From an uncultured delta proteobacterium (lineage in GTDB: Bacteria > Desulfobacterota > RBG-13-43-22), in the NCBI GenBank assembly GCA_963782435.1, contig CAWAKF010000030.1, positions 84,573 through 148,572 on the forward strand: a stretch of 64,000 nucleotides of DNA, read 5' to 3'. The notes under the pieces were generated by a model, which saw nothing but the letters and a program-made list of their open reading frames with translations, was not told the origin of the DNA and ran no database searches. Below are positions 18,235-25,929 of this stretch, piece after piece. The translations under genes and the position numbers were made by a program. Position 1 is the stretch's first letter; the number at the start of each line of letters is the position of its first letter.

Positions 18235-18264
18235 TTGACATTTATCTAAAGAAATGTGTATATT
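18235..18264 (+). promoter_or_regulatory. sigma70-type promoter of the divergent GAPDH
   Basis: TTGACA-18 nt-TATATT. Confidence 0.6.
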
Positions 18265-18387: not shown

Positions 18388-19665
18388 ATGGCTAAAGTTC
18401 AAGTCTTCGAAAATAAAAAGCCCACTCTCGGTATTAACGGGCTTGGCCGGATCGGAAAGCTGACGCTGTGGCATCACCTGGCACGGAAACATTTCCAGGA
18501 GATCGTTGTCAATATCGGACGGGAAGCGGGGACAGGGTTATCGACCATTGCCCAGCGAATCGAAACCGATACGACTTATGGACCGGTCCACCGATTTCTT
18601 TATGGGCTTAAAGCCCAACGGTTTATCGAGATTGTCGATGAAAAGACAGGAAAAATGATTATTGACGGCATCCCTGTGACTATTTTAAGGGAAGCACGCA
18701 ACCCGGCGGAGATCAAGTGGCGTGACTATGGGGTGGATATGGTTGTGGAGTGCACCAGCCAGTTCAGGGACCCCACGATCCCCCCGGACGACAAGAAGGG
18801 CTCTATCCGGGGGCATTTGGCGGCCGGGGCTAAAGTGGTCATCAATTCCTCTCCTTTTAAAATAAAGGATAAGGCCCTGCGTACGCCTGAAGATGCCATC
18901 ACGCTGATCTACGGGATCAACCACGCTGCCTTTGACAAGAAAAATCATTCTGTGCTCTCAGCTGCTTCCTGCACCACTACGGGACTGGCCCATATGGTCA
19001 AGCCCCTGCTGGAAAATGAGGAGACCAACAAGATCCTGACTGCTTCCCTGTCGACCGTACATGCCGTGACCAATTCCCAGGCTGTTCTCGATTCCATGCC
19101 CAAGGCGGGCGAAAAGGATTTGAGGAAAAATAGGAGTATCCTGAACAATATCATTCTTACCTCCACCAACGCCGCCGCTGCCTTGGCCGAGGTTATCCCG
19201 GAGGTTAAAAATATCGGGTTTATGGCTGATTCCATCCGGATACCCACCAATACGGAATCACTGATCGTCCTTAATGTTACCTTCCAAAGCAAAAATACTC
19301 CGACTGGAACAGCCCTCGAATTAGACACTAAAGTCATCAACCGGATCTACCAGAAGGTCAGTGAGCGGGACCCGGAAAAACTACTCGTTTTTTCAATGGA
19401 ACAAAATGTCTCCAGCGATCTCATCGGCTTGAATGCGGCGGTGGTGATCGAAGGCCAGTTCAACCATACCCGGACCTCTTTTATCGATATCGACTGCGCT
19501 TGCATTCCCGGTCTGCCCCCACAGGCCCTTCCGTCCCTGGAGACGAATACCCTCCGGGTGCCGGTGGTCCATGCCAAGATCTTCGGGTGGTATGATAATG
19601 AGTATGGGAGTTATGTGAATCGGTTGGGGGATCTAACGGTTCATGTGCATAAACAATTGACATAA
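18388..19665 (+). CDS. divergent long-form glyceraldehyde-3-phosphate dehydrogenase homologue
   Basis: GINGLGRIG, SAASCTTTGLA, TVHAVTNSQ, WYDNEYG; 425 aa with insertions; GGAGG RBS. Confidence 0.88.
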   Translation: MAKVQVFENKKPTLGINGLGRIGKLTLWHHLARKHFQEIVVNIGREAGTGLSTIAQRIETDTTYGPVHRFLYGLKAQRFIEIVDEKTGKMIIDGIPVTILREARNPAEIKWRDYGVDMVVECTSQFRDPTIPPDDKKGSIRGHLAAGAKVVINSSPFKIKDKALRTPEDAITLIYGINHAAFDKKNHSVLSAASCTTTGLAHMVKPLLENEETNKILTASLSTVHAVTNSQAVLDSMPKAGEKDLRKNRSILNNIILTSTNAAAALAEVIPEVKNIGFMADSIRIPTNTESLIVLNVTFQSKNTPTGTALELDTKVINRIYQKVSERDPEKLLVFSMEQNVSSDLIGLNAAVVIEGQFNHTRTSFIDIDCACIPGLPPQALPSLETNTLRVPVVHAKIFGWYDNEYGSYVNRLGDLTVHVHKQLT

Positions 19666-19844: not shown

Positions 19845-22800
19845 TTACAGCATAATTCGATTGGATTCCTGGGCCTCTTCCTCATGGCGGCCCTGGTAAA
19901 CCGCACCGCTCCAGCCATCGATGGAAATAAAGTCGCCCCCATGAATGGTCTGACCGTCAACAGTACTATAGCCTTTGGTTTCATAGACACTTAACTTGGA
20001 AAAACCCACAACCCCGACCTTATCAAGCTGGGGGATGGTTACCGCGGCATGAGAGGTACTACCGCCCTTGGCCGTTAGAAGACCTTCCACCTGAAGAAGC
20101 ACCCCAACATCATCAGGAACCGAGTCGGGCCGGATCAGGATCAGCGGTGTTTCCGGCTCCTTTTCCCGGTAGTGCCGGATTTCCTCTTCCGAATAGACGG
20201 CCCTTCCGGACAAGGCCCCGCCGCTCACCCCGATGCCGGTGCCGAGAAGAGCCCCCTTTAGTTGATCAGTTTCTTTGAATATCTTCAGTTTATGGGTTTC
20301 CCGCTGGACCATATCCCGGGTTTGAAGGATATAGAGTCCTTCCCGAGTCGCATTCTCAAAGGTGAATTCGATTTCCTGATGGTTGAACCTCTTATCGTAG
20401 ATCAATCTTTCAGACAAGTGAACGAGCTCTTTAAATATTTCCGGAAAATTGGCCTCCAAGGATATCGAGGTATCCTTTCTTTCTCTCAGCCTCTGCTTTT
20501 CCGATATGGGATAGGTGGAAACCAGACCGGAGACAATGTCGTCCCCCTGCACGCCAAAAATGAAGTCCCCATACAGGTTGATGCCGGGGGATGACTCTTT
20601 GGGGTCTCTGGTAAAGATAACGCCCGATCCGGATTGGTCATTTAAATTTCCGAAGATCATGGCCTGGACGACCACAGCCGTTCCCCAATCATCGGAGACG
20701 TGCATCTGTCGCCGGTAAATTCTGGCCTGGTCTGAATTCCAGGAGGCAATGACCTGTAGAAAGGCATCTTGGAGCTGGTCCGCGGGCCGGTCAAGAATTT
20801 TTATCCCTTTCTCCTCCAGGGCCTGCTGATAGGCCAGAGCGACCTGCTTTATCTGGTCCGGGGCAAATTGGATCTTCCGGTCGACCCCATATTTCAGCTT
20901 GAAGGTGTCAATAATGGAATCGAAAAAGTTCCGATCCAGTCCCCGCAACATGCCATAGCTCTGGAGGAACCTCCGAAAGCAATCCCAGGCCGCCCAGGCG
21001 AAGTCCGACTTTTTGCTGAGGCCTTCGGCGATTTTTTCATTGATTCCGACATTCAGGATGGATTGCATCATCCCCGGCAGGGAAAGCGTGGCTCCACTGC
21101 GTACACTTAAAAGCAAGGGGTTTCGGGGATCTCCGAATTTTCGACCCACCATCTTTTCCAACCGCCGGATCTCTTTACCGATCCTGTTGTTCAGGTCTTC
21201 CAGGATGTATTGGTACCCTAACAAGCCATCAATCCTGCGGAAGACCTCGGTGGTCAGGATGAAGCCCGGCGGTACGGGGAAGCCTAAAAAGGCCAGTTCC
21301 TTGAGAAAATAACCTTTATTCCCAAGGAGCAATTGATTGTCGAGCCTTTTACTCCGTTGGTAGAGAGGGGTGATGGTCATTTCCGGATTATAGGACATGA
21401 CCAGAGTCAATATCTGTTTGTTCTCTTTAAATTTCTCCAGTTCAGCCTGGAGGGTTCTTAAAATGCTGTTGATAAAATTGTCGAGCACCTGAAGGCCGAA
21501 GGCCGAGGAGATGGCCGCCCGGAAAAAATTTTCGGAGAGCTGGAAAAAGAGTTCCTCCTCCCCGGTTGAACCGGTTCCTTGGCTTGAGGGCGTGCCGTTT
21601 TCCTTGATGATTTGACCGATGACAATGGGGAGATTGGAACGGTGGGCATCGATGTGATAGTCCCGGATAATGTCCTGAATCCCCTTGGAGATGAACTGAA
21701 AGATATCAATGTACTGGTCAATGGAGAACTGTTTGATCTCCAGGGCGTTGCTGACATACTTCATTTTGGCCGTTAGACCCTCAGTGGCAATCCCTTCGAT
21801 ATCAAGGGCCTTCACATAAAGCCAGAGATAATGATGGATTCGCATCAGAGTGCTTTTGGTTATGAATTTCAGGTTGAGGGACTGGAGCAATTCCTCAAAC
21901 AGGACCGTGGCCAGGCTCTCCAGCCGAAGGGAAAGTCCCAGGGCTTCAAATTTTTCTTCCCGGTAGGTGCCGTACATGGAAGGGATACCGGCGGCGATAT
22001 GTCTTTTGCGGTAAATATTCTCCACATATTGCGTCTTCTCGGGGGAGAGGATTTTATCCTTCAGTTGGGCTAAAAATTCGAGAATAATAGCCAGACTTTT
22101 GTCTTGTTTTTTCTTATGGAGATGGCGTTTAAGCGCCTTCACCTTCGCCGGATCAAAGAGAAAGGAGGCTTCCAGATTTTTAAGGGCTTCTACGTGTTGG
22201 GGATTATATTTTTTGTAGAGGAGTTGATAAAAACGAATAAGCAGCCCGACCCGTTTCCGGTCCTTTTCAGGCAGGCCGTTTATGGTTTGAATCTCCCGTT
22301 CAATTTTGAAAACATCCCATTCCAGAAAACCCCTTGGATCCCCCTGGACCCGGTCATATAGGATTTCAAATATCGTCCGAAGGCCATTTGACTCTTGGGG
22401 GTTTTCAGGGACCTGCTCATACACCTCGTCCGGCAGATGATCACGAAGATGGATCTTTTTTCCGGAAGCCCAATAACGAAAGGCATTTTCCAGAAAGGTG
22501 ACCAGCAAACTGTTACTCTCTACGTGAGATTGTTTTCTAAGGAAATGGATTACCAGGTCCTGACGGGAGGAGAGCTCATCCACCTCGGTTGATATTTCCC
22601 GGAGTTCTCCCTCCGCACCGATTTCACTGAAATAGATCGGGAACAGCCTGAGGAGTTGTTTGACTAAGTTGTAGGCCGGGGAAATGTCCGTGTTCAGAAG
22701 GGCCGAAATGTTTTTCTGAAGCAGGTCCGTGTCCCGGATGAAAACGCCGCCCAGTTTCAGGTTAATAATCAGGGCCGAGAGCAATCTTTTTGTCCAACGG

Positions 22801-24065
22801 GGTTTCATGGCGATGATTTCCAGCCAGGCGCGGATATTCTCGATGTGAGCGGGATTGACCCGGATCTGCCATTCCGTGGTCGATCCGGCCAACTGGGGAT
22901 GCTGGAAGCCGAAAAAAATCAACTCTTCAATGAAAGTATCCACCAAGGGATGATGATTCAGATTAAAGACTTCCCTGGCCATGGTGATGACACAATTCAG
23001 GATCGTGCTGCGATATTGATTACAGGAAGTACATTTTTTCAACAGATCAAATATTTTCCGGAGAAAGTCATTCAGGTTCTCCGGCTTCTCCTCCCGGAAG
23101 ACCATGGTCAAGCAGCGATTGATCTCGATCAGGGTACGGCCATGGATATCGGTTAGATCCGGGACATTAATGATATGAAATAGGAAGTCGAGCTTGATGA
23201 GATATTCCCGCCCACTATATTCCTCCGCTTTCTCCAGTTCGTCGGCTACGAGGAGGTATCCCTCGATGATTTGCGTATAATCCGGAAGGGCAAGATAAGG
23301 CGCGGTCTCGTTTGCATCCCCTCCCCGGGATATTTCGGGCAGGGATTCGAGTCGTTCGATCAGGCCGGAAATAGACCGGTGGTTTAAAGGCATTACGATG
23401 GCATCATATCGGAAGATCGCCGAGGCCTCCTCACCCTCCTGGTTGAACCAGGCGATGGGGTCGGGCTGGCCCAACCAATAAAGATAGGTGTCCTTGAAGA
23501 CATTGTGGAGAAAAGCCCTCAACCCTTTCGTATCCAGGGAGATGGAATGCTCCATGGCTGTCTGAAGGAGTTTTTTCCCATAGGTCGATCCTTTTCTGAA
23601 AAGGAAGGCCTCTTTTTCAGAAAGGTCGATCAGGGAATCGATGAGCCCGGGAAAGAGGGCTATGTTCCGGGAAAGCAAACCGTTGCTTTTGGAAAGGATC
23701 AAATTTAAATAATCAAAGAGGAACCGGATCGAAGTCTCCCTGGTCTCTTCGTCAGCCCTGGAGCGGATGAGGTCCAAATAGATACCGACCAGGGTTTCCA
23801 GGGCTTTAAATCCTTTTTCGTGCCGATTGAAATCATAGAAATCCCCCATGGACAGGGTACGCAATTGTTTGAGTACATGCCCCCAGTTGACAAAGGGATG
23901 ATTCATCTCTGTCAGGAGATCCTGGGTTCTTTTAAACACACCATAGTGTTCCCGGGCGATAGTGAGCAGGATCTGATACTTGACTGGAATTTCCACCGTG
24001 GCTGCTGTGCGTTCCAGGTTGACCTGGAGGGCGGAGGATATAAATTGGGGTTCCTGTTTTTTCAT
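19845..24065 (-). CDS. giant PPDK-like protein: ~900-aa N-terminal domain + ATP-grasp + phospho-His domain, no PEP/pyruvate TIM barrel
   Basis: LLGNKG, PVPPGF, LLSVRSGA..SLPGMM, VQAMIFGN, QGDDIVSG, EIEFT, LQTR, GGSTSHAAV, ISIDG; ATG overlaps the gap stop (ATGA). Confidence 0.85.
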   Translation of the reverse strand: MKKQEPQFISSALQVNLERTAATVEIPVKYQILLTIAREHYGVFKRTQDLLTEMNHPFVNWGHVLKQLRTLSMGDFYDFNRHEKGFKALETLVGIYLDLIRSRADEETRETSIRFLFDYLNLILSKSNGLLSRNIALFPGLIDSLIDLSEKEAFLFRKGSTYGKKLLQTAMEHSISLDTKGLRAFLHNVFKDTYLYWLGQPDPIAWFNQEGEEASAIFRYDAIVMPLNHRSISGLIERLESLPEISRGGDANETAPYLALPDYTQIIEGYLLVADELEKAEEYSGREYLIKLDFLFHIINVPDLTDIHGRTLIEINRCLTMVFREEKPENLNDFLRKIFDLLKKCTSCNQYRSTILNCVITMAREVFNLNHHPLVDTFIEELIFFGFQHPQLAGSTTEWQIRVNPAHIENIRAWLEIIAMKPRWTKRLLSALIINLKLGGVFIRDTDLLQKNISALLNTDISPAYNLVKQLLRLFPIYFSEIGAEGELREISTEVDELSSRQDLVIHFLRKQSHVESNSLLVTFLENAFRYWASGKKIHLRDHLPDEVYEQVPENPQESNGLRTIFEILYDRVQGDPRGFLEWDVFKIEREIQTINGLPEKDRKRVGLLIRFYQLLYKKYNPQHVEALKNLEASFLFDPAKVKALKRHLHKKKQDKSLAIILEFLAQLKDKILSPEKTQYVENIYRKRHIAAGIPSMYGTYREEKFEALGLSLRLESLATVLFEELLQSLNLKFITKSTLMRIHHYLWLYVKALDIEGIATEGLTAKMKYVSNALEIKQFSIDQYIDIFQFISKGIQDIIRDYHIDAHRSNLPIVIGQIIKENGTPSSQGTGSTGEEELFFQLSENFFRAAISSAFGLQVLDNFINSILRTLQAELEKFKENKQILTLVMSYNPEMTITPLYQRSKRLDNQLLLGNKGYFLKELAFLGFPVPPGFILTTEVFRRIDGLLGYQYILEDLNNRIGKEIRRLEKMVGRKFGDPRNPLLLSVRSGATLSLPGMMQSILNVGINEKIAEGLSKKSDFAWAAWDCFRRFLQSYGMLRGLDRNFFDSIIDTFKLKYGVDRKIQFAPDQIKQVALAYQQALEEKGIKILDRPADQLQDAFLQVIASWNSDQARIYRRQMHVSDDWGTAVVVQAMIFGNLNDQSGSGVIFTRDPKESSPGINLYGDFIFGVQGDDIVSGLVSTYPISEKQRLRERKDTSISLEANFPEIFKELVHLSERLIYDKRFNHQEIEFTFENATREGLYILQTRDMVQRETHKLKIFKETDQLKGALLGTGIGVSGGALSGRAVYSEEEIRHYREKEPETPLILIRPDSVPDDVGVLLQVEGLLTAKGGSTSHAAVTIPQLDKVGVVGFSKLSVYETKGYSTVDGQTIHGGDFISIDGWSGAVYQGRHEEEAQESNRIML

Positions 24066-25059
24066 TTCATAATAAAAGACAAAAGTTCCAGCATCCGGTT
24101 CGAGAAGCCCCATTCGTTATCATACCAGGAAAGAATTTTGATGATATTACCGCCAATGACATTGGTATTGGGAAGATCGACTATGGAAGAATGGGGGTTC
24201 CCATTAAAATCACGGGAAACCAACTCTTCTTCGGAACACATCAGGATACCCTTCATGGGACCGGTGGCATATTCTTTGAGTTTGCCGTTCACTTCGTCTT
24301 TGGTGACGGCCCTTGAGAGGGTGGCCACAAAATCGACCAGGGAGACGTTGGGAACAGGTACCCTGATGGCGATGCCGTCTAATCGGCCCTTCATCTCCGG
24401 CATGACTTCTGAAATGGCCCTGGCCGCTCCGGTGGTCGTGGGGATCATGGAAAGGGCCGCCGCTCTGGACCGCCTGAGGTCTTTATGAGGTTCGTCGGCC
24501 ACGACCTGATCGTTGGTATAGGCATGGATGGTGGTCATCAACCCGTATTCCACACCGAACTCCTTCTGGAGTATCTTGACGATCGGGGCCAGGCAGTTGG
24601 TCGTACAGGATCCCATCGAGATAACGTGATGTTTCGTTGCGTCATATTCTTCCTCATTGATCCCGAAAACTACAGTGACGTCGGGGTTCTTGGCCGGTGC
24701 CGAAATCACCACTTTCTTGGCTCCAGCCATGAGGTGTTTTTCCGCCCCGGCCCGGTCGGTGAACTTACCGGTACTCTCGAGAACGACATCCACTCCGAGT
24801 TCCTTCCAGGGCAATCCTTCCGGATCTCTTTGGGAAAAGGTCTTAATTTCTTTACCATCCACAATAAGGGAGGTATCCTTAATTTTGACCTCCGCATCAA
24901 GAATTCCATGGACGGAGTCATATTTTAAAAGATGGGCCATGGTTTTGGTTTCCGTAAGATCGTTGACGGCCACAAATTCAACATCTTTGCTTCTTAGTCC
25001 GGCGCAAAAACCAACCGACCAATCCTTCCAAAGCCATTAATGGCGACTTTGACCGGCAT
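24062..25059 (-). CDS. gap: type I glyceraldehyde-3-phosphate dehydrogenase (N-terminal frameshift)
   Basis: Start MPVKVAINGFGRIG at 25059 with GGAGG RBS; YDSVHG, ESTG, SCTTNCLAP, WYDNEWGF. Confidence 0.95.
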
Positions 25060-25131: not shown

Positions 25132-25160
25132 ATAATAGCTCAAAGATGGGGTCCTGTCAA
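25132..25160 (-). promoter_or_regulatory. sigma70-type promoter of the gap/PPDK-like operon
   Basis: Minus strand TTGACA-17 nt-TATTAT. Confidence 0.6.
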
Positions 25161-25275: not shown

Positions 25276-25929
25276 ATGGATCTTCAATTTATTCAGGCCC
25301 GGGACCTGCCCGATGCCTGGTTCCAATGTGTTTCTGCAATCCTGGATTACGGGCAGGAATATGTTATCGACCGGGGTAGTTTCACCGGTCAAAAAAGATT
25401 GGAGTTTGATTATCTGACTGTTCAAATAAAATATCCCGGGACCCGTCCGCTGATTCCGGACATTCCTCCCGCTCTCGGTATTCCCAATCCAGTGGCAGAA
25501 GGTTATGTTGAGCAATATCTCCCTTATTTGATGACCTCGGTTAAGCAGCCTAATGAAGATTATACTTATGGACAATACCTGGAACCTCAAATCCAAGAAG
25601 TAATCCGCATGTATAAAGAGGAGGGCTATGGGACCAACCAGGCCTATATGACGGTGGGAAATCCGGACGCCATCTATTTAAATGATCCGCCTTGCCTGCG
25701 GGGGATCGATACCCGGATACGGGATGGTGTTCTCCATTTTTTTGTCTATTTCCGATCCTGGGATTTATGGAACGGGTTTCCGGCCAATCTGGCGGCCATC
25801 CAGTATCTCAAGGAATACATGGCCCATGAGATCGGGGTTGGAGACGGCGAGATTATTGCTGCCAGCAAAGGTCTTCATCTCTATGATTATGTCTGGGAAT
25901 TGGCCAAGCTGAGGGCGTTGAAGAAGTGA
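25276..25929 (+). CDS. thyA: thymidylate synthase, short (archaeal-like) type
   Basis: YTYG, PPCL, FRSWD, GFPAN, HLY; 217 aa. Confidence 0.85.
   Translation: MDLQFIQARDLPDAWFQCVSAILDYGQEYVIDRGSFTGQKRLEFDYLTVQIKYPGTRPLIPDIPPALGIPNPVAEGYVEQYLPYLMTSVKQPNEDYTYGQYLEPQIQEVIRMYKEEGYGTNQAYMTVGNPDAIYLNDPPCLRGIDTRIRDGVLHFFVYFRSWDLWNGFPANLAAIQYLKEYMAHEIGVGDGEIIAASKGLHLYDYVWELAKLRALKK

Follow-up and report, generated by a model that had tools for sequence, protein, structure and literature searches.

What does a dikinase phosphorylate when it lacks the domain that binds pyruvate or phosphoenolpyruvate (PEP)? The question is raised by a 1406 amino acid protein, here called X, encoded in a 64,000 nucleotide stretch of DNA (the window) from an uncultured Desulfobacterota bacterium of the lineage RBG-13-43-22 (GCA_963782435.1, contig CAWAKF010000030.1, positions 84,573 to 148,572). 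X joins a catalytic half of the pyruvate phosphate dikinase (PPDK) type to a long N-terminal region (N-region), and its gene lies beside gapL, which encodes a long paralog (GapL) of glyceraldehyde-3-phosphate dehydrogenase (GAPDH). The data below make it very probable that X acts with or on GapL, and X likely catalyses a phosphate transfer, so far undescribed, within the sugar metabolism of anaerobes among the bacteria. An earlier sequence-only reading had proposed a dikinase without naming any neighbour; with the GAPDH paralog next door taken into account, the acceptor is to be sought at the GAPDH step or in GapL itself. Genomes and loci are designated by G and L numbers.

Domain organisation of X and its dikinase half

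Pfam recognises PPDK_N (residues 958-1193) and PEP-utilizers, the mobile His domain (1307-1384), on X, with no PEP-utilizers_C barrel (PF02896) and no significant match in residues 1-905. Residues 912-1397 align with residues 16-512 of Clostridium symbiosum PPDK (E 9e-79), up to the end of the swivel domain in the solved PPDK. The phospho-His motif GGSTSHAAV, which holds His1339, is followed by the end of the chain 67 residues later, the C-terminus being 9 residues beyond the end of the PPDK alignment. X is not a truncated enzyme, since its relatives keep both the length and the domains: the 120 listed relatives of the N-region are nearly all of about 1400 amino acids with the same two Pfam domains. 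Among NCBIfam models the best is PPDK (TIGR01828) with 357 bits, below the cut-off of 843; PEP synthase (TIGR01418) reaches 55 bits, or 62 in another comparison in which PPDK had its 357, against a cut-off of 740 and with no barrel in X, and rifampin phosphotransferase (RPH, NF041857) reaches 36 against 999.

With residues numbered from the alignment to C. symbiosum PPDK, the equivalents of K22, R92, R135, Q240, G254, D280, Q335, R337 and H455 are invariant in all 64 aligned C-terminal halves, that of E323 is present in 63 and that of T453 in 59. The functional roles of these residues are taken to be those in PPDK, including that of R135 and D280 in Pi binding, which a literature search did not confirm. 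Because the catalytic residues of ATP-grasp and swivel are invariant and the alignment reaches the end of the PPDK swivel, X is very likely, as judged from its sequence, an active phosphotransfer enzyme without the third domain of PPDK, and its chemistry is presumably Pi-dependent and PPi-forming. No PDRP/PSRP regulator (PF03618) was found in its own 88%-complete genome, although X keeps the regulatory Thr.

X resembles PPDK in the first half-reaction, yet by the tests applied it is not PPDK, RPH or glucan water dikinase (GWD). With PPDK (EC 2.7.9.1; C. symbiosum structure 1KBL) it shares the order ATP-grasp then His swivel, the GGxTSH motif and the catalytic residues; it differs in having no C-terminal PEP/pyruvate barrel, in its 905 residue helical N-region and in being tied to a GAPDH paralog. 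The domain layout of PPDK, its phospho-His mechanism and the reversibility of its reaction are taken from PMC5371819. RPH and the two-component phenolic dikinases HpeHI/PpsAB, as described in PMC12167813, have the barrel replaced by another acceptor domain, a His motif near the C-terminus and an ATP-grasp motif nearer to PEP synthase than to PPDK; unlike in these enzymes, the extra domain of X precedes the ATP-grasp. StGWD1 is, like X, a large dikinase with an all-helical acceptor domain and a swivelling His, while in GWD there are CBM45 modules, and the ATP domain, which aligns better with RPH, is C-terminal and comes after the His domain (PMC13553574); X has neither feature.

The AlphaFold model of residues 1-905 (mean pLDDT 89.6, pTM 0.84) consists of helices and one hairpin (681-702), which holds the only strands of at least three residues, and this nearly all-helical model rules out a permuted barrel. 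Foldseek returns generic solenoids with a TM score of at most 0.20 for the whole N-region and nothing at E ≤0.001 for the core (345-735); the best VIA match of the N-region is a designed repeat protein (Z 11.1, root mean square deviation 15.3, 331 aligned residues), and the best fold match of the core has Z 8.7, deviation 8.1 and 167 aligned residues. These searches gave no specific match to the rifampin-binding fold or to the central helical domain of GWD, 9HA9 and 9QVI being possibly outside the library. A profile search of the N-region against PDB sequences gave a best E of 0.08 to 0.09, and profile comparison of the core with the C-terminal half detected no internal homology. The absence of a specific match does not show that the fold is new. 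The sequence-only reading had described about 480 C-terminal residues with PPDK ATP-grasp and phospho-His swivel, about 15 residues after the swivel, no barrel, some 900 mostly helical residues in front and a dikinase for an acceptor it left unnamed. This description stands, the 15 being close to the 9 found here; the fold that it had named as contrary evidence, a circularly permuted PEP-binding barrel in the N-region, is not what the model contains.

Conservation in X, over 128 full-length rows, is highest at residues 400-550 and 680-716. The conserved residues of the core are H407, D445, D447, R489, R501, R510, K511 and H514, with H407, D445, R489, R510 and H514 at 100%, and K687-R688-H689 of the hairpin at 96%. 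Such near-invariant Arg, Lys, His and Asp residues are as would be expected for a site binding an anionic metabolite.

Barrel matches in the genome that carries the window are restricted to a separate PPDK (contig C46) and PTS enzyme I (C18), each split by a frameshift, and no standalone pyruvate barrel was found there or in five other genomes searched. G012, a single contig estimated at 99% complete, has X and zero PEP-utilizers_C matches. Transfer in trans to a standalone barrel protein, which the earlier reading had offered as an option, is not supported. In G000 six PPDK_N proteins (one each on C16, C31 and C11, three on C19) also have no barrel match, five in open frames of 859-977 amino acids and one split; they are a putative further group of barrel-less dikinases.

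Association of X with GapL

GapL retains Cys195, His225, Arg249, Arg284 and the WYDNE motif, and the catalytic Cys and His and the phosphate-site Arg/Thr of GAPDH are kept in 58 of 58 sequences. It scores 288 bits with TIGR01534, below the cut-off of 367, and in its own profile full-length GapL proteins exceed 660 bits where standard GAPDHs stay below about 225. Compared with type I GAPDH it has about 90 extra residues and a His-x-Arg motif, discussed below. The NAD-site Asp32 is replaced by N-x-G-R with an invariant Gly-Arg, and the adjacent short gap genes keep N-D or N-E/D-like residues at this site; we take the replacement to bear on cofactor choice, as general GAPDH structure-function would have it. 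Together with the best PDB match, the NADP-type GapB 8WWZ, it suggests that GapL uses NADP.

Among loci with sufficient flanking sequence, GapL is encoded within 3 kb of X at 46 of the 54 close ones, at 27 of the 40 distant ones, which were chosen among the 93 positive genomes, and at 52 of the 56 from metagenomes that extend at least 1.5 kb downstream. The two genes are convergent in near relatives and in tandem at most distant loci. A standard gap adjoins X less often (14/47 close, 22/38 distant and 8/49 metagenome loci). Several distant loci group X, gapL, pgk, tpi and secG, and gap either precedes X or follows gapL; neighbours there were named partly from recognisable sequence, phosphoglycerate kinase (PGK) being confirmed. 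In G097 a 100% identical copy of a 2492-bp gapL-pgk segment lies behind the genes of the RuBisCO large chain and phosphoribulokinase (L150:5043-9985), which looks like recent recruitment into a Calvin-cycle cluster and fits a reductive enzyme working with PGK.

The pairing of X and GapL holds even where the genes are unlinked. A sample of 301 genomes of the phylum, whose kin are not independent and for which we therefore give no test statistic, contained X in 93 cases and GapL in 90; 87 had both, six X only, three GapL only and 205 neither. The six genomes with X only comprise four with a distant subfamily (see below) and two with fragments. PGK was present in all 80 genomes searched among the 86 other double-positive ones, once as a partial match, and a standard gap in 78 of these 80. 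Two single-contig genomes, G026 and G064, have GapL as their only Gp_dh_C match, X being split in two frames in G064. GapL is intact without X in G284 and G103, which excludes that it always decays once X is lost; only in G077 are both genes deleted. A lone GapL without X in G256 (L140:8210-9496), the only one in 35 genomes of its family, lies near prophage-like genes and was possibly acquired by transfer.

A specific site of GapL follows X. In 133 GapL sequences from X-bearing genomes, many of them close kin, His360 and Arg362 are each present in all 133, and of the 127 positions conserved at 95% or more only these two differed in each of the three X-less copies detected at first. A second scoring covered 78 loci, of which about ten belong to genomes in the first count. 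X and the H-x-R pair occurred together at 66, and at four more, missed by the N-region search, the C-terminal half of X lay at a contig edge and H-x-R was present. Three loci were not read by the pattern: G392 with H-R-R, G313 truncated, and G338 with Q-T-R and an intact X. The remaining five came from truly X-less genomes, where no C-terminal half of X was found and none has the intact pair: Arg362 is changed in five of five and His360 in four, G323 having kept His. In G284, G323 and G324, X-less members of one genus, positions 360 and 362 are the sole non-conservative changes among the 127. The five genomes fall in three families; a quick tree gives four changes, of which well-supported branches force only two. 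On this sequence evidence the correlation ties a specific site of GapL to the function of X.

A complex of X residues 1-570 with GapL was modelled with ESMFold2, residues 571-1406 being outside the model. The score was 0.74 (runs 0.79, 0.72 and 0.74) against 0.00 for the best of three controls; 116 of 157 solved complexes attain the mark used, as do 2 of 215 mismatched pairs, figures that apply only roughly with the alignments used here. Runs agreed in at least 78% of contacts, with a partner pLDDT of at least 86. In the model the N-terminal solenoid of X packs against GapL residues 176-185, 208-214 and 327-329 and both termini, away from Cys195, and these GapL residues are only moderately conserved. 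Interchain mutual information from 110 X-GapL pairs (effective number 57) gave the predicted contacts a mean Z of 0.89 with a permutation p of 0.12, and the top pairs resembled phylogenetic noise, so that this measure speaks neither for nor against the contacts. The model supports, but does not show, binding of the N-region to GapL.

The reaction of X and its alternatives

The reading that we favour, though tentatively and at rather less than an even chance, is that X is an AMP- and PPi-forming dikinase whose product, 1,3-bisphosphoglycerate, is channelled to an NADP-type GapL. In its fuller form, which is possible and calls for more reserve, X and GapL would be a two-protein machine for the reduction of 3-phosphoglycerate to glyceraldehyde-3-phosphate, paid for by the splitting of ATP into AMP and PPi, with a His1339 relay across a composite site that includes GapL His360 and Arg362. 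The N-terminal helices of X would clamp onto GapL, the conserved basic core would bind 3-phosphoglycerate, and the swivel His would use ATP and Pi to phosphorylate it, giving AMP and PPi. The 1,3-bisphosphoglycerate would be passed directly to GapL, whose Arg362 and His360 would form part of the hand-over site, and would be reduced there, likely by NADPH. When ATP/ADP is low, the expense of two phosphoanhydride bonds would draw gluconeogenesis over the uphill step of PGK, and pyrophosphatase would pull the near-equilibrium reaction of X; by textbook values the free energies would be about +4 kJ/mol for the X reaction and about +19 for PGK run backwards. Free 1,3-bisphosphoglycerate would be turned back by the ever-present PGK, and this would explain why the GAPDH is a dedicated, bound one and why a hand-over site exists. 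Pi dependence, NADP use, acceptor, channelling and direction are inferred. The characterised barrel-less relatives described in PMC12167813 and PMC13553574 (see also PMC4844700) have small molecules or glucans as their acceptors.

Several observations weigh against this proposal. PGK accompanies the pair in every genome searched, therefore X replaces nothing, and a role as PGK replacement is ruled out; GapL persists without X in five genomes, and in G097 gapL was duplicated with pgk and not with X. The predicted interface, in a model limited to X 1-570, excludes GapL 360-362. An X-linked His-x-Arg fits a protein acceptor equally well, and a distant subfamily accompanied by a GAF-sigma54 activator (see below) suggests that the X scaffold can serve regulation. 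The universal PGK, the GapL genes without X and the subfamily with its activator would suit a different view, doubtful but a serious candidate, of X as a protein-histidine dikinase: the beta-phosphate of ATP would pass from His1339 to GapL His360, stabilised by Arg362, as a control switch set by the balance of ATP-Pi and AMP-PPi, and the role of the conserved core would be effector sensing or docking of the swivel. The predicted binding, the strict presence of both residues with X and the breaking of the pair in each X-less genome would all follow from it. The GapL H-T-R moreover resembles His15-Thr16-Arg17 of HPr, the target of PTS enzyme I (PMC8509676), and the His domain of enzyme I is homologous to the swivel (PMC12167813); enzyme I is charged from PEP via its barrel, X apparently from ATP. 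The likeness to HPr is however of three residues only, and lies at a helix N-terminus in HPr and, by alignment, probably in a strand in GapL; G338 has Gln360 with an intact X, and Arg362 follows X more strictly than His360. A general role of X as regulator of the standard gap, or as part of a two-GAPDH cycle, is ruled out by G026 and G064 with their single GapL.

The same linkage data would hold, in a reading that we consider unlikely, if X acted on another metabolite of the triose-phosphate node or ran in reverse, making ATP from 1,3-bisphosphoglycerate, AMP and PPi and so recycling the AMP and PPi of sulfate activation or of acyl-CoA ligases. PPDK itself is reversible, and where GapL is the sole Gp_dh_C match, as in two single-contig genomes, it has to work in all directions used; the reductive direction is favoured by the NADP-type signature and by the gapL copy in the RuBisCO cluster. 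A glucan dikinase acting on glycogen like plant GWD, an acceptor that the sequence-only reading had allowed, is highly improbable. The size and the helical acceptor domain are similar (PMC13553574), and a glycogen-synthase-like gene lies upstream of gap-X at three of 40 distant loci (L102, L105 and L133), but X has no carbohydrate-binding Pfam domain and a PPDK-like domain order, it is linked to GAPDH, and residues of GapL track it. There is equally little to be said for an ordinary PPDK or PEP synthase with a separate or permuted barrel: the database name of the family and the lack of any barrel protein in G012 would agree with it, and the helical N-region, the full PPDK already present in the own genome and the negative barrel searches speak against it.

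The GAPDH-PGK segment is treated as universal and settled. A dikinase feeding GAPDH, or an ATP-driven histidine dikinase switching it, would if true be new in central metabolism, and the former would be a PGK bypass, in about three of ten sampled genomes of the phylum, in the most conserved segment of glycolysis and gluconeogenesis. Either would bear on sugar building and on the use of AMP and pyrophosphate in energy-starved syntrophs and related anaerobes.

The X family and the gene neighbourhood

X is common, occurring with GapL in more than a quarter of the sampled genomes, and databases mostly label its members 'pyruvate phosphate dikinase', a name that can lead metabolic reconstructions astray. 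No description of the family was found in the open literature, subscription journals being largely outside the search. Of 7993 scored candidates, 791 match the N-region, and clustering at 50% gives 579 representatives; the named matches include Syntrophorhabdus, Smithella and Syntrophus; among ten representatives the three named clusters are Marinimicrobia, Bacteroidales and Myxococcota. An Atlas search with an X homologue returned only clusters of the same architecture, with no structure model. When shorter forms of the N-region were sought, 109 matches of varied length were obtained; several are marked as partial, and no Pfam domain was recognised in any. The own genome has no paralog of the N-region; it has one PGK and three GAPDH genes.

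Proteins of the distant subfamily (L127-L130) are 1494-1543 amino acids long. In them the dikinase residues are intact, the core is rewritten and lacks the hairpin motif K-R-H, and the regulatory Thr is exchanged for Gly; no GapL was found in the genomes checked. At three of the four loci the following gene, which overlaps X, encodes a GAF-sigma54 activator, and the two are possibly a dikinase-based signalling system.

Features of the X-gapL locus, with positions in the window
Feature	Position	Strand	Remarks
X gene	19845..24065	-	Single open frame, 1406 amino acids and stop
X residues 1-361	22983..24065	-	Helical solenoid, predicted GapL-binding surface
Predicted GapL-binding residues of X			40-43, 66-81, 111-128, 258-275, 310-320, 357-361
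X residues 362-735	21861..22982	-	Most conserved core, putative acceptor site
X residues ~912-1260	20286..21332	-	PPDK-type ATP-grasp; K917, R989, R1032, D1176, E1233, Q1248, R1250
X residues ~1271-1397	19875..20255	-	Swivel domain; His1339 codon begins at 20051
gapL	18388..19665	+	425 amino acid GAPDH paralog, convergent with X; catalytic C195 and H225 kept
GapL His360-Thr361-Arg362 codons	19465..19473	+	
Standard NAD-type gap	24062..25059	-	Stop overlaps X start
Promoter-like site upstream of gap-X	25132..25160	-	11/12 consensus, consensus match only
Promoter-like site upstream of gapL	18235..18264	+	11/12 consensus, consensus match only

The ATG of X and the stop codon of gap share the sequence ATGA (24065-24062). 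In comparison with relatives (seven of seven), one base is missing from a run of T close to the 5' end of this gap gene (24990-25010, minus strand), likely an assembly error; the splitting of gap, PPDK and enzyme I alike suggests assembly indels. In one genus (L097, L125 and L142) the short gap upstream of X lacks the phosphate-site residues (motifs SCISN and PVNID) and GapL is intact; G026 and G064, with an intact GapL and no standard gap, belong to this genus. Divergent from gap in the window is a short, 217 amino acid thymidylate-synthase-like gene (25276-25929, plus strand) that is kept in close relatives.

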